Source: a virus
Virus record (IMG/VR): IMGVR_UViG_3300046820_001062
Coordinates: 59,731 to 123,730 of that record
Strand: one strand, 5' to 3'
DNA length: 64,000 bases
The position numbers and the translations under genes were made by a program. The notes beneath the pieces are model-generated. The model did no database searches and was not told the origin of the DNA. It saw only the letters and a program-made list of their open reading frames with translations. Within the stretch, counting starts at the first letter, position 1. The number at the start of each line of letters is the position of its first letter. This document shows positions 4,884 through 60,493 of this stretch, piece by piece.

Positions 4884-5555
4884 TTATCTAGCTGTGTGTT
4901 TAAGATCTTGTGCAGCATCTTGTGGAACTTGCATCATCAATCCTAAATCTCTCATAGCTAATTGTTCAATTTCTGGGAATAAATGTTCAGGTACATTGTA
5001 AGGACTATCTTGAACATACTGACAGTCATCAGCTGGGTCACAGTTATACTTAGAGATATCTCCTTCAAATACACCTTCAATTCTTACAGCATCCCACTCT
5101 AAATTTGGAAAATATAAGTAACCATCTAAGTACCAATAGTATTTTTTCTTATTGTACTTAAATGTTTTTTGCCTTTCCATTTGTTGATATGTAGTAGGAT
5201 ATGTACTTGTTAAGTCTTCTGATAAATCTAATGAGGTAACTGCTCTAATCAAAGGTCCCCAGTAACCATCATAAAGTTCAGGTAACTTATCTTTTGTTCT
5301 TTTAAAATAACAACCTGTATCAATACCAACACATTGAGCTTGTGCTCTATCTACTTCAATCAACTCTACAAAATCTAGAGTCTGAAACACAGATTGATAT
5401 TTCATGATGCGATTCAAGTTATCTTGTCTACGCATCAATAATTTTGCATGTTTATTAACAAGAGAATACAAGAAACGGTCAGTCAGGAAAGCATCCTGCT
5501 TAACAGCTTTTACTTGGTTACGCACCCTTGATAATACTTCACCTATTGTAATCAT
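4884..5555 (-). CDS. Tail ring/adaptor protein (crAss-like)
   Basis: 223 aa; LTDRFLY, KRTKDKLP, YYWYLDGYLYFPN motifs; synteny. Confidence 0.6.
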   Translation of the reverse strand: MITIGEVLSRVRNQVKAVKQDAFLTDRFLYSLVNKHAKLLMRRQDNLNRIMKYQSVFQTLDFVELIEVDRAQAQCVGIDTGCYFKRTKDKLPELYDGYWGPLIRAVTSLDLSEDLTSTYPTTYQQMERQKTFKYNKKKYYWYLDGYLYFPNLEWDAVRIEGVFEGDISKYNCDPADDCQYVQDSPYNVPEHLFPEIEQLAMRDLGLMMQVPQDAAQDLKHTAR

Positions 5556-6202: not shown

Positions 6203-7549
6203 TTAGACTGTATATGTAAATTCACTTATCAATCCTTTGCTTGAATCATGAATGTGCATAATAGCTGAACGCGTATTTCCCACATATTTGTTGTGGTAAT
6301 GGTAATAATCAGAAGAAGTTAAGGCAGGTATAATTCTAGTAACAAAGCCATTTTGTTCATTTTCAGTCACAAACTGTGTTGTTTTACGTCCATGATAATG
6401 ACCTGTGTAAAGCATTCTATATTTAGAAGATCCCCATTCATTTGGAAATTCAACAGCATATACTAATGGATTATTCTTAGCAGTCACGTCCCCATGTTCA
6501 AAACAAAGCATGTTTAAACCATAAGTTAATACCTTTCTCTCTGCATAGGTAACATTAAAATCTATATCTTCCCAAGTCTTAAATGCTTGAGAAACAGCAT
6601 GTAGCAAATGGAATGAACTAAGTCTGTCATGGTTACCTGGAATAAACAATACCTCAAGTTTCTCACAAAACTGTTTAGCTGTTCCAATTGCCTGGCAGAT
6701 ACCATCAAAAGCTTTAATGTAAGCTTCAGTTGCCATCTCTGAGTTCTCTACTGGAGTTCCCTTTGTAGTTGTACCACCAAAGGTGTCCATATTAAGTGTA
6801 TCTGGGCCTATTACAAAGACTATCTTCTCTAAGACATAGTTTCTATTAGCTTTGTCAATTAAGTAGCTTACAGAGTCATTTAAGATCTCTGCCATGTCTT
6901 CGTTCCCTACTTTACCAAAGTGAAGATCCTGTAAAGAAAGAACCCCACAAACTTTTTCTTGAGAACTTGTGTTCTGCCAAAAAGCTGCAGGGTCTAATGG
7001 AGTTATTTGTGGAACCTGATATGTTTCAAGTAACTCTAAAAATGTACTTTGTATTTTTTCTTCTTGTGGTACTCTGCTTACTAGCGCAGATACTAACCAC
7101 TTGGTTCCTTTTTCTTTATTCCAGTATTGAGATAGTTTCCACTTCTTTGTGTCTATCTTCAGTAATGCAATAATTTCTTCAGCACTACGCGGCTCTGTTG
7201 CAGACAGGCCAACAATCTTACTGGTTCCTGATTCCAAGTCTTCATGAATTTCAATTCTCTTAGAATCTTCTTCTTTATTGTGCCATCTGTCTTTAGCATC
7301 AATTCCTAGTTGTTGTTCTAGTTCAAATAAAATTTCTTCATTTGATGCAACATCTGATTTTTTTGTTAACTTTGCTTCAACCATTTTAATGATGACAGAA
7401 TCTATTTTTGAACCTGCTTCATTTAAAACTTTGATTACTTCTTCTTTTATCTTTTGGTAATAAGATAGTGAAATACCTAGTCTTTGAGCTTCAGCTTCTG
7501 CTGACTTTTTTCTTTTTAAGCTATGGTATACTGATGATATAATATTCAT
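6203..7549 (-). CDS. Calcineurin-like metallophosphoesterase with N-terminal helical/HTH-like region
   Basis: Motifs QDLHFG, GPD..NMD, PGNHD, EHGD, GHYH in the expected order. Confidence 0.8.
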   Translation of the reverse strand: MNIISSVYHSLKRKKSAEAEAQRLGISLSYYQKIKEEVIKVLNEAGSKIDSVIIKMVEAKLTKKSDVASNEEILFELEQQLGIDAKDRWHNKEEDSKRIEIHEDLESGTSKIVGLSATEPRSAEEIIALLKIDTKKWKLSQYWNKEKGTKWLVSALVSRVPQEEKIQSTFLELLETYQVPQITPLDPAAFWQNTSSQEKVCGVLSLQDLHFGKVGNEDMAEILNDSVSYLIDKANRNYVLEKIVFVIGPDTLNMDTFGGTTTKGTPVENSEMATEAYIKAFDGICQAIGTAKQFCEKLEVLFIPGNHDRLSSFHLLHAVSQAFKTWEDIDFNVTYAERKVLTYGLNMLCFEHGDVTAKNNPLVYAVEFPNEWGSSKYRMLYTGHYHGRKTTQFVTENEQNGFVTRIIPALTSSDYYHYHNKYVGNTRSAIMHIHDSSKGLISEFTYTV

Positions 7550-7701: not shown

Positions 7702-8472
7702 TTAGATTATAATAGTATCTACAGTGTTATCATGCCCTGTAACTGCTGCTGAACAAATATCTGCTCCAGAAGCAAAATAAGCACCTTGTGAGCAAGCATT
7801 GATGCTTCCATAATTAGTACCAGCAGCCACAAGAACTGTAAATGATTGTGTCGTAGTATTAGTACATCCTGCACCTCTTGAGGTCCAATAAACTTCAACA
7901 TTAAAGTTAGTATCTACTGATACAGGAGCATCTAAAGAAACACTTGCACCCATGTGATCATCAATAGTGCCACCAATACAAGGTTCCATTGATCCATAAG
8001 CACCTATTACATTAATAGTAGTTCCTTCACCACAAGCACCATTAATAGTAAGTTCAGATTCATTACCTAATATAACACTTCCTTCTCTAGCACAAAATGT
8101 AGTTGCATCGTATCCACTAACACCTCCAACAGTCACTTGTTGAATCTGACCTCCACAATCTATATAAGCTGTAGTTTGTGCTTGAGCTGAACTAGTTGAT
8201 ACTGTATAAGAAATACAGTTTTCAGCAGGACAATCTAATGCAGTGGCTACAGTTGATGCTGCAGTGCTCTGATCAGATTGATATTCTCCTGTAGGGCAAT
8301 TTGTTTTTACTGTTACATTATATGATACTCCACATTCAATACCTGTTGTAATAACCACAGGTGAAGAAGATGCCGTTGTACATGTTGGAGTACCACCAGT
8401 TGTAGGAACATAACAAACTTCATAGCTTGTTATTCCAGGTACTGGTGTGAAATTTACTGTTAATTGTGCCAT
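7702..8472 (-). CDS. Cys-rich FN3-like virion fibre/decoration protein
   Basis: N-terminal FN3-like strand pattern (ITSYEVCY...YNVTVKTNC); Thr/Ser/Gly/Cys-rich. Confidence 0.6.
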   Translation of the reverse strand: MAQLTVNFTPVPGITSYEVCYVPTTGGTPTCTTASSSPVVITTGIECGVSYNVTVKTNCPTGEYQSDQSTAASTVATALDCPAENCISYTVSTSSAQAQTTAYIDCGGQIQQVTVGGVSGYDATTFCAREGSVILGNESELTINGACGEGTTINVIGAYGSMEPCIGGTIDDHMGASVSLDAPVSVDTNFNVEVYWTSRGAGCTNTTTQSFTVLVAAGTNYGSINACSQGAYFASGADICSAAVTGHDNTVDTIII

Positions 8473-8497: not shown

Positions 8498-9031
8498 TTA
8501 AGATACTACAGCTGATAGATTTGTTGGTGCAGGACATGCAGGTGCGTCATTAATTGTAACTGAACCTGAACAGTTTGCAACATTAGTACCAACAGCAATA
8601 GTAAAACTATAGTTGTAAGTAACACCATAATCACCTACAAAATTTATTACAGTTCCTGTAGGTCCTTCAGCAACATTATATGGAGCTTGTCCATCAACGT
8701 TAATGTCGCCAGAATAGATAGCATCTCCTGTCAAATCAGGAAAACCAAGAGTTACATTTCTACCTTCTACAAATTCTCCAACACTTGGACAAACTGCTTT
8801 ACCAGCTTGAACATCTGTTGAATCTGTAGGACCACCAACTTCACATAAATTTACAATTTGATAAGTATATAATACATTATCTAATGCAGTAGTATCTGAA
8901 TAGTTAGAGGTAGCAGCGGGTAAAACAGAGCTGATATCTGCAAAAGAACCAGCTCCTGATTTTCTTTGAACTTTCTGACCTGTACTGTTTGCATCATTTA
9001 CAGGTGTCCATGAAAGATTTATTGTTGCCAT
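8498..9031 (-). CDS. FN3-like virion fibre/decoration protein
   Basis: INLSWTP...YSDTTALDNVLYTYQIV (FN3 pattern); ends CPAPTNLSAVVS. Confidence 0.65.
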   Translation of the reverse strand: MATINLSWTPVNDANSTGQKVQRKSGAGSFADISSVLPAATSNYSDTTALDNVLYTYQIVNLCEVGGPTDSTDVQAGKAVCPSVGEFVEGRNVTLGFPDLTGDAIYSGDINVDGQAPYNVAEGPTGTVINFVGDYGVTYNYSFTIAVGTNVANCSGSVTINDAPACPAPTNLSAVVS

Positions 9032-9063: not shown

Positions 9064-10527
9064 TTATGAAACTGTTGCTGTTAAGTTTGTTGGTGCAGGA
9101 CACTCTTCAGGAGGTCTACATGCATTTTTTACAAATGATATTTCTACAGTTGTAGATTCACCAAAGTTTTCACAAATTGTTTTAGCTTTAACTTTATATG
9201 TATCACCTGCAATTAATCCTAAACCAAAGAAGTTAGCACTTGCGGAACCTCCACCAGGTACACTTATAGTTTGGGTATCAACATCTACGTTACCACCTGT
9301 CACATGTACCAATGTAAACTGAATGCTTAATGCAGTTGGATCACTAACTGTAGCAGTTGCTGTAATTCCACTTTCAGTTTTAGTACATACCTCTTCGTAT
9401 CCTAAACCTGTTGGTACTGGACATTCAGATACACATTCTAAAGTTGTAGTTGAAGCAGTAATCCAAGCAGAATCACCACCTGTACATTTAGTTTTAACTC
9501 TTACATTATAGTTTGTTAATTGAGTCAAACCAGATACTGTAATTGTATTTGGACCACTAAGAGTAGTTGTCAACATTCCACCTGCAGTCCAGTTTGCAGA
9601 ACCTGCAACTTGATATTCTAATGTTACATTAGGATTGCTAGGAATATGAGCTATATCTGCAACAAATGCTTCACAGTCTACATTAGTAATACTAAATTCT
9701 GGAGCAGGACAAGGAGCAGGACAAGCAATAACAGTAACAGGTAATGTTGTAACAACATCACAAAGACCAAATGCACTATTTTTAGTTACTTTAACGATAT
9801 AAGTGCCAGGAGCAACACCACCAAAGTTATACATATAACTAGATGACATACCTGTTGGTGTAAATGTGTGTGATTGTAAAACAACAGTAGGACTAGAAGT
9901 ACTAACTAATTCAGCAAGTAAACTTGTAGCAGTACCATCATCAGAAAAAGAAACTTCAAATGAAGCACATACTAATGATCTACCAAAAATGTTTGTAATG
10001 GGATTACATGAAGTACATGATTCTGTTTCTTCTAATGCAGGGCATGGTGTTCCATCACATGATGCTGGAGTAGTAATGGTTCTTGTTCTAGTTCTAACTC
10101 CTCCTACACAATCTGACCAAGGACCCCAAGCAGATACAACACAGTTAACAGGCAAACAACATTCTCTAGTTTCTTCTAGATCAGGACAAGCTGCTCCACC
10201 ATTTTGAGGTGCTTGAATAACTGTTCTTGTTCTAGTTTGAACACCATTTAAACATTCTGACCATTCAGACCATGCTGATACCTCACAATCAACAACTGGA
10301 GGTGTACCATCGCAACAATCACAAAGTTTGTTTGCAATGATTTGCAATACTTGATTAAGATTAGCACCTGTAGTAATTCCAAGACATGGAATTGCAGGTC
10401 CTGTATATCTAACACATGTGTCAAGAACTATCTCTTCACATGGTTCTCCAGTACAATCTGGTGGTGCAGGAAGCTCAACACAAGGTTCTGGCTCGTTGCA
10501 CTGATGACAATATTGATTAGGATACAT
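9064..10527 (-). CDS. Cys-rich fibre-like protein with two thrombospondin type-1 repeats and FN3-like domains
   Basis: DCEVSAWSEWSEC..QTRTRTV...C and NCVVSAWGPWSDC..RTRTRTI...C; then an FN3-like segment (LTQLTNYNVRVKTKC); ends CPAPTNLTATVS. Confidence 0.8.
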   Translation of the reverse strand: MYPNQYCHQCNEPEPCVELPAPPDCTGEPCEEIVLDTCVRYTGPAIPCLGITTGANLNQVLQIIANKLCDCCDGTPPVVDCEVSAWSEWSECLNGVQTRTRTVIQAPQNGGAACPDLEETRECCLPVNCVVSAWGPWSDCVGGVRTRTRTITTPASCDGTPCPALEETESCTSCNPITNIFGRSLVCASFEVSFSDDGTATSLLAELVSTSSPTVVLQSHTFTPTGMSSSYMYNFGGVAPGTYIVKVTKNSAFGLCDVVTTLPVTVIACPAPCPAPEFSITNVDCEAFVADIAHIPSNPNVTLEYQVAGSANWTAGGMLTTTLSGPNTITVSGLTQLTNYNVRVKTKCTGGDSAWITASTTTLECVSECPVPTGLGYEEVCTKTESGITATATVSDPTALSIQFTLVHVTGGNVDVDTQTISVPGGGSASANFFGLGLIAGDTYKVKAKTICENFGESTTVEISFVKNACRPPEECPAPTNLTATVS

Positions 10528-10556: not shown

Positions 10557-12119
10557 TTAACAAGTTACTTCACCTGCGCATGCCACAGCTCTATTTGTAG
10601 AAATTGCACCTAGACAATCATAAGTTTTATACTTAGGAGTACATGGATCAACTCCACATTTCACATATCTCTCCATTTCATAAATATGATCTACTGAAGA
10701 AACACCTGTTGCAAATGTTTTTGTAATTGATTCAGACACAGCAAGTGAACAATCTCCATCAACTGTATAATTAATTACTGCTGTAAATGGAGCAAGTGAG
10801 TTTGCTACAGGATTTCCAGTAACAATATCTTTCAATGTAAGTGTAGTTTTTCTTCTCTTTGTTACATAAGAGTCACCATCACATACTGTTGTAATATCAT
10901 CAAGTGATACATCAGTTACACTAACACAATAAAGTACAGTTGTCAAAGCTATTTTACCTACAATTGTTGCAACTGTTGAATCATCACAGCTATACTCTGC
11001 TACAATTTGTACTTGATAATCTTTTGCAGGATCAGGAACAACTGTTATATCATGGAAATTAGTTCCAAAAGGTTTTACAACATTTAAAATTGGTGAACCA
11101 ACTGTTGATGAACCATTCCATTCATACACTTTAACAGTATATTGTAATGGAGCTTCTGATACAGTGCCTGTAGCTGGAGCTGACCAAGTTATTTTAGAAC
11201 CTGAAGATGTTAGATTTGTAATCTGAATATTTGATACAGGAAGTGGTACACATGGTAAAGTAGTATTTGAACTATTAACAATTGCAGCTCTCATATCACA
11301 AATTGTTAACCACATGTTTACTATAGTTTCTGACAAAGTAGTTGGATTTGCAACCCAACCTGGTATCAATGACATTGATGCCGCAGGATTACTTAAAGGT
11401 TCTGCAGAATCTAAACTTGCACATTCTGTTCCAATTGCTGTTGATAGTGCAGCATTAGTTCCAAGTAATGTTGTCAATTGACAGAATTTACTTTCAAATG
11501 CTGAAAATGCAGTACCAATTGGCACAACAGTTCCTGGTGTTGATGAACTTGCACATTGAGATACAACAGAAATTGAAGCTCCTGTTCCACCTCCACCACC
11601 TGAATTTGCTTCAAGTGCTGCAACTCTTCCACCTAAGTTGTCAAGAGTTGAGTTAATGCTAGTTATATCATCAATGATTTCACATATTTTAGATGCTAAA
11701 TAAGCACTATATTCATTTGGCAATAATGCTGTAACTTCATCACCATCCTCTGTAAAATATAAACAAGCAGGTAATGAAATAGGTGTTGGTGTTGAACCAC
11801 CTCCAGAACTTTCACCACAACAAGTAGAAGCAATTTGACATTGCTTATCTATCATTGCTTGTAAAGCTCCAAGAATTGTTGTAGGTTCTGCTACACCTGG
11901 AGCAAGAATACATTTAAAATCAAGTGTACTTAAATCAATAACACCTGAAGTTATTTCACACAACTTGGTTGCTAGATCAAAAATAACATCTGTAATTGTA
12001 TCTCCTTTACAAAGATCAATACAAGGAATATCTGGACCTTGCCAAATAACACAAGAAGATGATGTTTTTGTACATCCATCTTCAGGTTTTAATTTTAAGT
12101 TGCTGTGTAATGGTTTCAT
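10557..12119 (-). CDS. Cys-rich fibre-like structural protein with coiled coil and FN3-like domain
   Basis: N-terminal CVIWQGPDIPC...KLC domain is shared with the next gene; heptads (INSTLDNLGGRVAALEA); FN3-like ITWSAP...YQVQIVAEYSC. Confidence 0.65.
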   Translation of the reverse strand: MKPLHSNLKLKPEDGCTKTSSSCVIWQGPDIPCIDLCKGDTITDVIFDLATKLCEITSGVIDLSTLDFKCILAPGVAEPTTILGALQAMIDKQCQIASTCCGESSGGGSTPTPISLPACLYFTEDGDEVTALLPNEYSAYLASKICEIIDDITSINSTLDNLGGRVAALEANSGGGGGTGASISVVSQCASSSTPGTVVPIGTAFSAFESKFCQLTTLLGTNAALSTAIGTECASLDSAEPLSNPAASMSLIPGWVANPTTLSETIVNMWLTICDMRAAIVNSSNTTLPCVPLPVSNIQITNLTSSGSKITWSAPATGTVSEAPLQYTVKVYEWNGSSTVGSPILNVVKPFGTNFHDITVVPDPAKDYQVQIVAEYSCDDSTVATIVGKIALTTVLYCVSVTDVSLDDITTVCDGDSYVTKRRKTTLTLKDIVTGNPVANSLAPFTAVINYTVDGDCSLAVSESITKTFATGVSSVDHIYEMERYVKCGVDPCTPKYKTYDCLGAISTNRAVACAGEVTC

Positions 12120-12343
12120 TATATTGTCTTGATTTTTTCCTCAATACTAATTTTTGAACAACCTCCACCAAACGTTAAACCACAAGTATTCATTTCAAGA
12201 GTTCTTAAATAAAGTTCTCTCAAATCATTTGCATATTCAGCTTCTACAGTTGCTTTACAAGATTTTAAACCATAACGCGTTTTCTTGTAAGAAACAAAAA
12301 CTGAATCAGCAAATACTTCACTTATGCGTTCTATTGGGTCCAT
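12119..12343 (-). CDS. Hypothetical structural-module protein
   Basis: 74 aa, coupled to the downstream gene. Confidence 0.55.
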   Translation of the reverse strand: MDPIERISEVFADSVFVSYKKTRYGLKSCKATVEAEYANDLRELYLRTLEMNTCGLTFGGGCSKISIEEKIKTI

Positions 12344-12345
12344 GT

Positions 12346-12534
12346 TTATGTGTTGCTTGTTTTATTCATATCTGTAGTCAAAGGATATTTATTCAATTGG
12401 CTAGCAGCGTGTTCTTTCAATTTAAGTTGATTCTCATAGTTTGCAGCACAAGTGCTACATACTTCTTTACCATCAGATGCTACTCTCTTTTGACATCCAC
12501 ATGATAGTTTTGATCCACAATTTTGACAGTTCAT
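12346..12534 (-). CDS. Small Cys-rich (zinc-finger/metallothionein-like) protein
   Basis: CQNC..LSCGC...CSTC in 62 aa. Confidence 0.6.
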   Translation of the reverse strand: MNCQNCGSKLSCGCQKRVASDGKEVCSTCAANYENQLKLKEHAASQLNKYPLTTDMNKTSNT

Positions 12535-12561
12535 ATTATATTTGGTTTTAAATAGTTTGTC

Positions 12562-13170
12562 TTAGTGATGATGACCATGAGATCCGTGTGTATAACCACC
12601 ATGAGATCCATTGCAACTTACGCAGCAACCAGTCATGTATTTTTTTAGCAATTTGTCAGCATAAGCCAACATTTCAACACCTTGCTTTGGTGAGTGACAA
12701 TATTCTGTCTTTGCTTTTGCAGCATCTATATACATCTTAATATAACGTAAATCATGTAATTTTTGATGTTGTTCTGCAGAAGGTTCACAAGGTTCTAATT
12801 GTACTTTACAAAGTTCCTTGTAGTATGCATTCATAATTGTTGTTGTTCTCAGATGATAGTATTCTACATAAACTTTATCATTTGGAGAAACACTATACTT
12901 GATAGTATAAAGTCCATCAGGCAAAGAAATCAAATGCTCTGCTTGAGGATGTTGTAGATGAAAATCTTTTGCATTCAAATTAAGTGCAAAACCTGGAGCA
13001 ATCTTTGGTTCTGTAATATATAAAGGTTCTGCAAAACCAGGAAAGAATATATCTAACCTAGGGCAGTCCACAGGTAACGTCTCAGCATAACTAGAACTAT
13101 CCCATATTTTTAGGATAGTGTCACATGCTGTGTCTGGGATATCTAATGCCAGAATATGTTTTATTGCCAT
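12562..13170 (-). CDS. Structural-module protein with Cys/His-rich C-terminus
   Basis: LPDGLYTIKYSV motif; ends GCCVSCNGSHGGYTHGSHGHHH. Confidence 0.6.
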   Translation of the reverse strand: MAIKHILALDIPDTACDTILKIWDSSSYAETLPVDCPRLDIFFPGFAEPLYITEPKIAPGFALNLNAKDFHLQHPQAEHLISLPDGLYTIKYSVSPNDKVYVEYYHLRTTTIMNAYYKELCKVQLEPCEPSAEQHQKLHDLRYIKMYIDAAKAKTEYCHSPKQGVEMLAYADKLLKKYMTGCCVSCNGSHGGYTHGSHGHHH

Positions 13171-14507: not shown

Positions 14508-14951
14508 TTATTTTAAGAAAAGCAGTTTATACTTAATAGAGTTGATAGTACTTTTAACGTTATCCAGGTCATTGACAATCTCACTGTAAGGCATAATTGT
14601 TTGTAAACCAGATACCATTTCTTTCATCTCTCTTAAATAAGATACAGCTTCTTCTACAGAATTCAAAATTCTTGGTGCAGAATCTTCATAATTTAGCAAT
14701 TTTTCTGATGCACCTTGGAATCCTTCAGCAACAGCATCTGCATGTCCAGGTAATGCATCATACAATTCATTTAACGCTTTGTGTGATGAAAATGAACCTA
14801 AACCTGTAACTTTCAAGTGTAACTTATGAAAGCTTACAGAAGCGTTCATTAATTCAGTAACACATGCTGCAGTTTGAGCCTCACATGAAGATCCTGCAGG
14901 ATATCCTGTAGTTGTTCTTTTTAAAGTTTTATATTGTCCAGCAAAATCCAT
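14508..14951 (-). CDS. Ferritin/Dps-like four-helix protein
   Basis: FHKLHLKVTG.GSFSSHKALNELYD...D.VAE.FQG, a Dps-type pattern. Confidence 0.7.
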   Translation of the reverse strand: MDFAGQYKTLKRTTTGYPAGSSCEAQTAACVTELMNASVSFHKLHLKVTGLGSFSSHKALNELYDALPGHADAVAEGFQGASEKLLNYEDSAPRILNSVEEAVSYLREMKEMVSGLQTIMPYSEIVNDLDNVKSTINSIKYKLLFLK

Positions 14952-27784: not shown

Positions 27785-27960
27785 GGTTTTTTAATTTTTT
27801 AATTATTGTACCAATCACTCAGGAATTTCACCTGAACTACTCTCTCAACTTAGAACTGCGATTCTTTTGTTGATCTGTTCCACCAAACAGAATGAGTAAT
27901 GCTTTTTCTACGCTTACATCAGTGTGGTACTGGCGACTCCTGCATGGCATGCACCTTTTG

Positions 27961-28035
27961 TTGCGGGGGTAGGATTTGAACCTACGTTGTTTGGCTTATG
28001 AGACCAAGCTGGGACCTACTCCAGTCTACCCCGCC
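27961..28035 (-). tRNA. tRNA-Met(CAT), initiator-like, atypical D arm; CCA not encoded
   Basis: GGCGGGG/CCCCGCA acceptor with 1:72 mismatch; anticodon loop CTCATAA; T arm GTAGG-TTCAAAT-CCTAC. Confidence 0.85.
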
Positions 28036-28041
28036 AAACCT

Positions 28042-28296
28042 TTAATCCAGAATATTCTGAATCTTTGAAATGGTCTTCTGAGTACTACTAAGAACCTTCT
28101 TAGTGCGATCAGCTTCAGCCATCAAATCATTGATTTGATTATTGACCATGTCAATATGTTTTACTTGTTCTTCTTCTAAAGATTGTAAACTAGTCAATGT
28201 AGTTACAAATCCTGCAAGGATAGCGTCTTTTCTTTCTTGAAATGATCTAGATGAACTTGACGTACCTGTAAACTTGCTAATGATGGTTTTTAACAT
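28042..28296 (-). CDS. Hypothetical coiled-coil protein
   Basis: 84 aa with heptad pattern. Confidence 0.55.
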   Translation of the reverse strand: MLKTIISKFTGTSSSSRSFQERKDAILAGFVTTLTSLQSLEEEQVKHIDMVNNQINDLMAEADRTKKVLSSTQKTISKIQNILD

Positions 28297-28313
28297 AGTA
28301 ATAAGTTTTAAGG

Positions 28314-28601
28314 TTACCAGATAATTGCAATATCTCTTTCTGCAATCATTAATTTTAAATCTTCTCCAATAGAAACTACTCCAGCATTCTGAAGTGAATA
28401 TGTTTCTACAAATACTTTGTCTCCTGCTGCAACAAGAGTAACCTCATCACCCACAGCAAATACTTCTAATGCTGTCCATTTTGCCATCATTTCAGCTTCC
28501 ATTGCTGCTTCAGCTTCAGGTGATAACAACACCTTTGATTCTGGTTTTTTTGGTTTAGTAAGTAACACCCTTGTTCCTACTAGTTTTTTAAATTCTGCCA
28601 T
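28314..28601 (-). CDS. groES: GroES/Cpn10-like co-chaperonin
   Basis: RVLL, mobile loop (ESKVLLSPE), EVFAVG...V..GDKV, LMIAERDI. Confidence 0.75.
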   Translation of the reverse strand: MAEFKKLVGTRVLLTKPKKPESKVLLSPEAEAAMEAEMMAKWTALEVFAVGDEVTLVAAGDKVFVETYSLQNAGVVSIGEDLKLMIAERDIAIIW

Positions 28602-28631
28602 TGTTTATATTTATTTGGTTATTAAAATTTG

Positions 28632-28704
28632 AGCCTTCTGTAGGAGTTGAACCCACAACCTGCTGAGTACAAATCAGCTGCTCTACCAATTGAGCTAAGA
28701 AGGC
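28632..28704 (-). tRNA. tRNA-Thr(TGT)
   Basis: GCCTTCT/AGAAGGC acceptor; GCTGA-TTTGTAC-TCAGC anticodon arm; GGTTCAACTCC. Confidence 0.95.
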
Positions 28705-28709
28705 TTTTG

Positions 28710-28783
28710 TGATCCCACTAGGATTTGAACCTAGAACCTACAGCTTAGAAGGCTGTTGCTCTATCCAATTGAGCTATGAGACC
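28710..28783 (-). tRNA. tRNA-Arg(TCT)
   Basis: GGTCTCA/TGGGATC acceptor; ACAGC-CTTCTAA-GCTGT anticodon arm; GGTTCAAATCC. Confidence 0.95.
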
Positions 28784-35317: not shown

Positions 35318-35403
35318 ACCTCAGTGGTGAAAGTGGTAGACACGAGGGACTTAAAATCCCTTGGCCAGTGATGGCCGTGCAGGTTCAATTCCTGTCTGAG
35401 GTA
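35318..35403 (+). tRNA. tRNA-Leu(TAA)
   Basis: ACCTCAG/CTGAGGT acceptor; AGGGA-CTTAAAA-TCCCT; long variable arm; GGTTCAATTCC. Confidence 0.93.
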
Positions 35404-35409
35404 CAATAT

Positions 35410-59485: not shown

Positions 59486-60493
59486 ATGTTTTCATCTAAA
59501 CACCATATAACAGATATCAATACTATACCATCTGCTTGGATATTTGAAAACTATCTTGGTTTACCAGAAAAATTAACAGGACAAAGTGTTAGAATCAATA
59601 GTCTTTTCAATTTAAATGATAAGACTCCATCAATGTACATATATTATAATGCAGAGCATAAAGTGTATAAGTACAAGTGCTTTTCTACAGGAAAAGGTGG
59701 TGGTGCAATTGATTTAATGATGCACATGTGGGACCTGAATTTTGCTGATGCTTCTCACAGAGTGATTAAAGATTATGTAGACTATCTTAAAACAGGTAGA
59801 ATATGTGAAACAAGTATTACTCAACATTCAAAGTGGAAAGTAGACAAATGGCAAACCAGAGGCTGGAATGAAAATGACGCCAAGTTTTGGTCAGCATATA
59901 ACATATCAAGTAAGATTCTAAACAATTACAATGTGATTCCTTTGGACAGATATGTTATGCAGAAAGTATTGAATGACAAAGAAATAGAAGATGAATTCAC
60001 AGTAGTAAGTAAACATGTTTATGGTTATTTCACGCGTGATGGTATCCTCTATAAGATCTATCAGCCAATGAATAGAGAACGCAAGTTTATTAAGATTTGT
60101 GATTATATTCAAGGTTACGATCAGTTAGAGAAGAAACCAATTATTGTAATTGCTTCTTCACTAAAAGATTGCATGGCAATCAAGAGTATGGGCTTAAACA
60201 TTGACGTTATAGCACCAGACAGTGAGAACAGCATGCTGCATCCAGATGTAATCTTTGAACTCAAAGAAGAATATGAATCAGTAGTGACTGTTTTTGACAG
60301 CGATGACGCAGGAATAAAAGCAATGAAAGCTTATGAAGAAAAATATAAGCTACCATTTTGTTACTTACCACTAGAAAAAGACATTGCTGACATTGTCAAA
60401 ATCCATGGTGTAAAGAAAGCAATCTATGAGTTTGTTCCTAAGCTTGATAATGCCTGTGACAAATATGCAAAATTGCATTTAGATAATGATTAA
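59486..60493 (+). CDS. DNA primase (DnaG/TOPRIM, crAss-like)
   Basis: S.FN..DKTPS, SLKD.M, APDSE, FDSDDAG, KDIAD. Confidence 0.85.
   Translation: MFSSKHHITDINTIPSAWIFENYLGLPEKLTGQSVRINSLFNLNDKTPSMYIYYNAEHKVYKYKCFSTGKGGGAIDLMMHMWDLNFADASHRVIKDYVDYLKTGRICETSITQHSKWKVDKWQTRGWNENDAKFWSAYNISSKILNNYNVIPLDRYVMQKVLNDKEIEDEFTVVSKHVYGYFTRDGILYKIYQPMNRERKFIKICDYIQGYDQLEKKPIIVIASSLKDCMAIKSMGLNIDVIAPDSENSMLHPDVIFELKEEYESVVTVFDSDDAGIKAMKAYEEKYKLPFCYLPLEKDIADIVKIHGVKKAIYEFVPKLDNACDKYAKLHLDND

Follow-up and report, generated by a model that had tools for sequence, protein, structure and literature searches.

Two thrombospondin type-1 repeats (TSRs) stand close to the N-terminus of a predicted phage fibre protein, referred to here as open reading frame (ORF) A, which is encoded in a 64,000-nt window of viral DNA (positions 59,731 to 123,730 of IMG/VR record IMGVR_UViG_3300046820_001062). 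This window, to which all nucleotide coordinates below refer, constitutes the second half of the 123,730-bp record, whose completeness is estimated at 98%. Judged by sequence and predicted fold, residues 80–171 of ORF A are two genuine spondin-type TSP1 repeats, in a reduced and acidic variant with four framework cysteines. With a probability of roughly 0.55, we take them to be mainly stiff, length-setting modules of a fibre stalk, which may also bind ligands directly. The elements at the core of this reading are:

9064–10527, minus strand: ORF A, the TSR-bearing fibre protein (487 aa, 33 Cys), assigned from the ORF and its Pfam matches.
10156–10290, minus strand: TSR 1, aa 80–124, with Cys 81, 92, 114 and 123 plus an extra Cys 124.
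10015–10146, minus strand: TSR 2, aa 128–171, with Cys 129, 140, 162 and 171 plus an extra Cys 157.

An earlier, sequence-only reading of the window had proposed two full spondin-like TSP1 repeats at residues 80–171, which correspond exactly to window positions 10015–10290, and searches with hidden Markov models (HMMs) bear this out. ORF A matched Pfam TSP1_spondin (PF19028) with 75.8 bits (cut-off 41; E 3.2e-21) in two stretches, the alignment spanning profile positions 1–48 of 52, and TSP_1 (PF00090) with 39.9 bits (cut-off 21.6), placing both families over their gathering thresholds. Scored separately against PF19028, TSR 1 (56.8 bits) and TSR 2 (44 bits) each exceeded the cut-off as well. 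Searched in all six frames, the complete virus record returned the two TSRs as its sole family matches. Among proteins of known structure, sequence matches in the PDB were to the TSP1 modules of C8 alpha, C9, C7, R-spondin-2, F-spondin and MIC2.

As Foldseek searches with the full-length model were swamped by tandem FN3 (fibronectin type III) arrays and hence uninformative on the TSRs, the TSR pair was folded separately by AlphaFold, using an 11-row alignment of phage units as input. The resulting model was confident (predicted local distance difference test, pLDDT, 94.2) and comprised, per unit, one irregular and two regular strands. All of its significant Foldseek matches in the PDB were TSR-bearing proteins (C6, TSR2-3 of thrombospondin-1, properdin, C8/C9, Unc5A and MIC2), with a single weak match to the TSR-like pleiotrophin. 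Individual units superposed on PDB TSRs at 1.3–2.2 Å over 50–56 columns, with 33–39% identity.

TSP1 domains hold three cysteine layers, of which, in spondins, the top one joins C1 to C4 and the two bottom ones join strands I and III, while Trp and Arg layers complete a rigid spine (bioRxiv 10.1101/779553). In ORF A, both repeats display the motifs C-x-V-S-x-W-[SG]-x-W-S-x-C and C-P-x-L-E-E-T-x-x-C, just as the earlier reading had described them. Each unit has two invariant Trp (W86 and W89 in repeat 1, with their equivalents in repeat 2), and the first W-layer position of the phage units is Val; in Spondin-1, this position is Leu or Tyr (bioRxiv 10.1101/779553). An R-T-R-T-R stretch, likewise ascribed to both repeats, was found in repeat 2 (R-T-R-T-R-T, three Arg) but not in repeat 1, which reads Q-T-R-T-R-T and thus has two Arg; R99 and R101 are invariant. 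The cysteines for the C1–C4 top layer are present and invariant (C81/C114 in TSR 1, C129/C162 in TSR 2), and each unit offers a single possible bottom pair (C92/C123 and C140/C171) in place of the six-cysteine framework. Since the cysteine of the C-G-x-G motif and its partner are absent from 32/32 clade units examined, one bottom layer is missing, and this reduced four-cysteine framework is still accepted by the Pfam HMM. The two ORF A units carry net charges of –4 and –2, in line with the acidic character of the clade units generally (mean –2.3, range –7 to +1, n = 32). A sequence check for the O-fucosylation motif C-x-x-[ST]-C-x-x-G identified none in any of the listed clade units.

Orthologues of ORF A comprise ~30 protein clusters and 16 IMG/VR loci, many on contigs of ~120 kb, with the gene kept in a conserved slot. 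TSR number in this slot ranges from 0 (L014, L015) to 6: among 38 distinct clade proteins, 7, 8, 10, 7, 5 and 1 contain one, two, three, four, five and six units, respectively. Across the family, the order of parts is a Cys-rich anchor, a variable number of TSRs, swappable FN3/immunoglobulin (Ig)-like modules and a tip that is either fused or derived from the next genes. The corresponding parts of ORF A flank the TSR pair:

10303–10527, minus strand: conserved Cys-rich N-terminal domain, the presumed virion anchor, aa 1–75, from the orthologue alignment.
9118–9999, minus strand: three FN3/Ig-like beta-sandwich modules, aa 177–470, with model strands mostly at pLDDT 80–95.
9067–9102, minus strand: C-terminal tag C-P-A-P-T-N-L-T-A-T-V-S, aa 476–487, which reads as FN3 strand A, from the orthologue alignment.

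The N-terminal domain is the best-conserved part of the protein (76–100% identity in the 20 closer members of the alignment, 52–61% in the four most distant). It belongs to no family in Pfam or PHROGs, and an ESM Atlas search with the N-terminal 80 residues retrieved only unnamed viral clusters at chance-level scores. Within the full-length model of ORF A (pLDDT 80), it is poorly modelled, with pLDDT <50 over most of aa 1–39. The FN3/Ig-like region matched tandem FN3 arrays in Foldseek and remained sub-threshold against Pfam fn3 (22.9 bits); its FN3 part also matched minor tail and fibre proteins of phages in BFVD as well as phrog_23968. These modules are mosaic and have been exchanged among orthologues. 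By the combination of N-terminal anchor and TSR pattern, fibre genes of marine and freshwater crAss-like phages become recognisable.

Besides the framework cysteines, some units possess an extra Cys directly after their last Cys, and some a Cys before the G-G motif. In the 38 clade proteins, the junction Cys of one unit and the loop Cys of the following unit were both present in 44 cases and both absent in 16, without a single discordant case (Fisher p 7e-15); a wider set of proteins gave 47, 26 and 0, respectively. Consistently, the loop Cys is missing in 51/52 units that have no TSR before them. One orthologue (L008) lacks the pair at junctions 1–2 and 2–3 and possesses it at junctions 3–4 and 4–5. 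As the pair is thus switched within single proteins, the covariation signal is not merely inherited. The B–C loop lies at the N-terminal end of a TSR, beside the incoming linker, making a disulfide from unit n to unit n+1 geometrically plausible. Together, these patterns point to an inter-repeat disulfide, the pairing itself being deduced from sequence. In ORF A, the extra pair would be C124–C157, with which all 10 Cys of aa 81–171 are accounted for. Outside the clade, 19 junctions between abutting TSRs were tallied in other viral proteins, including the phrog_14478 group described below, and none harboured this cysteine pair. The copy-number series of the TSRs and the predicted inter-repeat disulfide are new here.

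Downstream of ORF A, the fibre appears to continue in separate genes:

8498–9031, minus strand: ORF B, 177 aa, with an FN3-like start lacking strand A and ending with the tag, from its sequence and L014 homologues.
7702–8472, minus strand: ORF C, 256 aa, with an FN3-like head lacking strand A, followed by a distal tip domain (aa 86–256), from homology to orthologue P0004.

ORF A and ORF B both end in C-P-A-P-T-N-L-x-A-x-V-S, and in either case the next ORF follows after an A-rich spacer of about 25–32 nt. The tag is found in most orthologues in the general form C-P-x-P-T-x-L-[ST]-A-x-[VI]-x; Cys 476 before it is invariant, and in the monomer model the tag is disordered (pLDDT about 56). Related phages carry 0–3 such chain ORFs, each of them FN3-like without the first strand and all except the last ending with the tag. 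In L014, Pfam fn3 aligns above threshold to the chain ORFs (55.2 and 28 bits), starting no earlier than profile position 15–16; the FN3 domains are thus split at the A–B loop, across gene borders. Readthrough or frameshifting from ORF A into ORF B can be dismissed, as several in-frame stops lie in the 32-nt spacer and the next ATG is in another frame. The ORF B leader is of the A-rich type typical of most genes in the window.

The C-terminal 170-aa domain of ORF C has no family match. It shares 53% identity (E 1e-59) with the C-terminus of P0004 (aa 463–636), where this tip domain is fused directly behind the TSRs. By Rosetta-stone logic, the fusion suggests that the products of the separate ORFs form one fibre with that domain at its tip, and from sequence ORF C aa 86–256 probably serves as the tip of the fibre or as its receptor-binding domain. 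A donated strand could be locked in place by the invariant Cys that precedes the tag, together with an F-strand-like Cys of the next ORF. In its full form, the proposal is a fibre of several gene products, with a disulfide-stapled TSR rod of a length governed by copy number and with pilus-like donation of strand A across split FN3 domains, possibly locked by cysteines. We put it forward tentatively, considering it less probable than its negation. To our knowledge, no solved phage structure shows a stapled TSR rod or donor-strand joining of split FN3 domains.

Under the reading we prefer, the TSRs would act mainly as stiff rods, locked by disulfides, within the stalk of a modular fibre on the virion. 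By analogy to spondins, each unit would be held by its Trp-Arg ladder and two framework disulfides, an upper one between C1 and C4 and a lower one between C2 and the last Cys. Between abutting units, the Cys after the last Cys of unit n would pair with the B–C loop Cys of unit n+1 and clamp the joint. Gain or loss of units (0–6) would then shift the reach of the fibre by about 5 nm per unit, while specificity would be set by the tip and the variable modules, the tip being part of the same protein or else a product of downstream genes, docked via the split FN3 domains. Disulfide formation would follow release of the virion from the cell. We thus infer the actual disulfide pairing, the rigidity, the length-tuning role and the position in the virion. 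A spacer role is favoured because the TSRs adjoin the anchor, vary in copy number, appear stapled, are acidic, and are accompanied by a separate tip and mosaic FN3/Ig-like modules.

The phage that encodes this fibre is crAss-like, as indicated by gene content and order. Matches to PHROGs placed genes for terminase, portal and major head protein on the same strand as ORF A, and downstream of ORF A follow Pfam CrAss_Ring_2, CrAss_Ring_1 and then a very large virion protein. With these genes on a 123,730-bp virus record, the earlier assignment of ORF A to a phage is well founded. When compared by phmmer to Bacteroides phage crAss001, the record yielded homologues of gp20 (E 5.7e-23), gp32 (1.3e-9), gp33 (1.4e-7), gp40 (3e-6) and gp43 (4e-4); the crAss001 homologues (portal, major capsid protein (MCP), gp33, R2 and R1) were recovered in the same gene order. 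A Shine-Dalgarno core was detected in 2/51 genes, the leaders of the other 49 lacking it; leaders consist of 50% A, and the GC content of the window is 35%. From the scarcity of Shine-Dalgarno cores, the A-rich leaders and the crAss-like architecture, the host is inferable as probably a member of the Bacteroidota, which had also been surmised earlier.

Patterns derived from the TSR pair were used to recover further loci from bacterial metagenome-assembled genomes (MAGs) and viral contigs. In bacterial MAGs of many phyla, this pattern search revealed 26 TSR loci with 36–61% identity, from taxa including Alphaproteobacteria, Saprospiraceae, Chitinophagales, Binatia, Myxococcales, Phycisphaerales and Acidimicrobiales; signal-peptide-like N-termini were seen in no fewer than seven of the open frames. 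The same patterns recovered 50 viral TSR loci. Among them, virion structural proteins of phrog_14478 (1482–2379 aa; loci L049–L062, L072 and L075, on IMG/VR contigs of 18–65 kb) bear from 1 to 11 spondin-type TSRs at their C-terminus, with spacers of ~150 aa between them. In a further set of viral contigs (L063, L065, L067, L068, L076, L079, L086 and L089), several of which are giant-virus MAGs (GVMAGs), the TSRs follow an N-terminal transmembrane-like segment. A region-restricted search of 5.8 billion proteins retrieved MAG proteins of Myxococcales (48% identity) and Acidobacteriota (43%) beside protist matches (EukProt 49%, Saprolegnia 43%, Polarella 37%).

A FastTree phylogeny of 538 non-redundant units over 47 columns has limited resolution and served solely to dismiss a recent eukaryotic origin; no donor was identified from it. 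In this tree, 54/66 non-redundant units of the present phage clade fell within a clade of 93 units (support 0.84), the remainder of which comprised 20 units from further phages, 18 metagenomic units without a label and a single MAG unit; eukaryotic units were absent. TSR 1 of the window lies outside this main phage clade, and the membrane-anchored units of giant-virus MAGs and other viruses did not group with phage-type units. The only TSR protein from a cellular MAG in the phage-type clade (L019; Alphaproteobacteria, match at 5001–5300 of a 496-kb contig) shares 60% identity with the window pair and may reflect a prophage or a transfer. Neither this phylogeny, in which the clade holding 54 of these 66 units contains no eukaryotic one, nor the equally close TSRs (44–61% identity) in proteins of diverse bacterial MAGs, next to those of protists, phages and giant-virus MAGs, agrees with the label 'eukaryote-style' that the repeats had been given. 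As far as can be told from sequences, a prokaryotic and viral TSR pool exists, without sign of recent capture from animals.

In 50,697 GenBank phage records, tblastn searches with the whole protein and with the TSR pair found no match, which leaves the family without a cultured reference. In BFVD/UniProt, one protein of an 'uncultured Caudovirales phage' is already named as a TSP1 repeat. Searches of the literature yielded no publication that deals with phage TSP1 repeats; a paper on jumbo phages was set aside, as it cites merely an unrelated thrombospondin N-terminal module. The domain is fairly common in uncultured phages, with one automatically annotated case, but it is not, as the sequence-only reading had allowed for, already characterised in phage fibres.

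Against this background, other explanations of the repeats can be weighed. One would have them be a chance Cys/Trp-rich pattern or an assembly chimera rather than a domain that functions in a phage protein; all that speaks for it is that the record derives from a metagenome. HMM scores far over the curated cut-offs, a confident and specific fold match, and retention of the region in dozens of orthologues from independent samples and on syntenic viral contigs rule it out for practical purposes. Also highly improbable, albeit to a lesser degree, is a recent capture from a eukaryote, by which the virion would adhere to eukaryotic surfaces (mucus, algal polysaccharide) in a manner resembling bacteriophage adherence to mucus (BAM). 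TSRs are indeed abundant in animals and protists, protist proteins (EukProt and Saprolegnia, 43–49% identity) are among the nearest named relatives, and FN3/Ig-rich phage decoration proteins are the textbook case of mucus adherence. Yet bacterial MAG proteins are as close or closer, the tree places the bulk of the clade units (54/66, support 0.84) in a group with other phage units and no eukaryotic one, at least 16 related viral contigs keep the module at one and the same gene position, and the units are acidic and devoid of C-x-x-[ST]-C-x-x-G modification sites.

A more serious contender, though one we hold to be clearly less probable than a stalk role, is that the TSRs are themselves adhesive and bind polysaccharide or protein of the host envelope (capsule, lipopolysaccharide, S-layer), copy number providing multivalency, as in TRAP/MIC2, properdin and F-spondin. 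Several observations speak for it or weigh against a mainly structural role. Eukaryotic TSRs usually bind ligands in addition to their structural role, and ligand binding is typical of the family as a whole. Between the closest relatives, 23/97 positions differ in the TSR segment vs. 30/386 elsewhere (p 4e-5), so that the non-framework TSR positions constitute a divergence hot spot between near-identical phages. P0001, the closest relative, is 99% identical to the window in the anchor and 91% in the rest, but only 76% across the TSRs (10015–10302), and its TSRs are nearer to those of the more distant phage P0003. This points to cassette exchange; selection on an exposed binding surface would fit as well. 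In some orthologues the TSRs are far from the N-terminus, beside distal modules and in part just before the C-terminal tag or tip, and in the phrog_14478 virion proteins of other phages the arrays are C-terminal and presumably distal. Moreover, the staple is deduced from covariation among related sequences, and phmmer detected no similarity to the fibre and hub proteins gp21, gp22, gp29, gp38 and gp39 of crAss001. Heparan sulphate epitopes, finally, are discussed for TSP1 domains in bioRxiv 10.1101/779553.

What tips the balance towards a stalk is that the net negative charge of the units makes sulfated or acidic glycans improbable ligands, the acidic surface being unlike a heparin-binding one and offering no positive binding face. 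In ORF A the TSRs are the most anchor-proximal modules, and the conserved tip domain and the mosaic FN3/Ig-like modules are better candidates for specificity. TSR identity keeps to 67–82% regardless of how far the remaining sequence has diverged, as would fit a fixed scaffold whose surface positions vary freely or are exchanged. For the same reasons (acidic units, a site adjoining the anchor and a separate tip domain), the binding of sulfated glycans or mucus envisaged in the sequence-only reading is somewhat disfavoured. Spacer, adhesin and eukaryotic-surface readings are not strictly exclusive of each other.

Several neighbouring genes touch on the fibre locus. Immediately upstream of ORF A, three genes (window 10557–13170, minus strand), syntenic in all relatives, encode proteins of 202, 74 and 520 aa, the last of which is related to the anchor of ORF A:

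10557–12119, minus strand: 520-aa paralogue with the N-terminal Cys motif, an FN3-like stretch and no TSR, from synteny conserved in related loci.

The core motif of the ORF A N-terminal domain recurs in this protein with 37% identity over 38 aa (E 2e-5). The 202-aa protein ends in a C-C-x-x-C tail, and the 74-aa ORF lies at about 12122–12343. By position, the trio could comprise hub or adaptor proteins and a second fibre; similarity to crAss001 THA or THB was not detectable. Between the fibre genes and the ring proteins, and thus within the virion module, sits a 448-aa protein (6203–7549, minus strand) that matches phrog_704, 'DNA repair exonuclease' (E 1.7e-47), without a match in Pfam; its position is kept in all related loci. 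A 147-aa DUF5856/ferritin-like (Dps-like, phrog_858) protein is encoded among capsid-proximal structural genes (14508–14951, minus strand). The window also contains four tRNA genes (27960–28783, minus strand, and 35318–35404, plus strand) with the identities Met-CAT, Thr-TGT, Arg-TCT and Leu-TAA.

TSRs are textbook adhesion modules of animals and apicomplexans, and in characterised phage fibres none has been described, judging from the GenBank phage search and the literature. A sizeable, uncharacterised TSR pool in phage virion proteins and in secreted-looking bacterial proteins alters the view of this fold's distribution, and a phage-type TSR lineage is common to otherwise unrelated structural proteins. 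The phage units resemble the spondin TSP1 domain, as in F-spondin (PDB 1VEX), which is also a direct sequence match, in the Cys right before the V-S-x-W-S-x-W strand, the Cys after G-G and the Arg ladder; as in Spondin-1, a hydrophobic residue, in the phage Val, replaces the first Trp. They differ from spondins in lacking the cysteine of C-S-x-x-C-G-x-G and its partner, in being acidic and in having no eukaryotic glycosylation motifs, and their neighbour-dependent extra Cys pair is outside the description of TSP1 domains in bioRxiv 10.1101/779553.

Complement C6, C8 and C9 and properdin provided the best sequence and structure matches (C8 alpha, E 1e-6), and in the alignment the C-terminal TSP1 domain of C8 alpha also lacks the C-G-x-G cysteine. 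Identity is 25–37%, however, and these are vertebrate plasma proteins with MACPF and LDLa as partner domains. The tandem TSRs of properdin and C6 are largely rigid structural rods. TRAP and MIC2, the latter a match in both sequence and fold, share with the phage protein the surface display of TSRs, beside other adhesive modules, by an infectious particle or cell. Apicomplexan TSRs such as theirs are basic, glycosylated and bind sulfated glycans, whereas the phage units are acidic and adjoin the anchor.

Closest by virus type is crAss001, whose portal, MCP, gp33 and ring proteins R1 and R2 have detectable homologues here. Its virions are stabilised by disulfides, including at the tail hubs, and short N-terminal segments serve to attach its fibres (PMC10172136). 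The crAss001 fibres (gp21, gp22 and gp29), however, carry no TSRs and have no sequence similarity to ORF A, and the position of the ORF A gene, flanked by the capsid-proximal genes on one side and the ring genes on the other, differs from theirs. As to construction, T4 Hoc and the minor tail proteins with FN3 arrays offer the nearest parallel, being likewise beads-on-a-string arrangements of small beta-rich modules on a virion protein. Unlike an Ig-like or FN3 module, a TSR consists of three strands held by disulfides and a Trp-Arg stack without a hydrophobic core, and such a small, disulfide-dependent and copy-number-variable module would be a simple means of tuning the length and stiffness of a fibre outside the cell.

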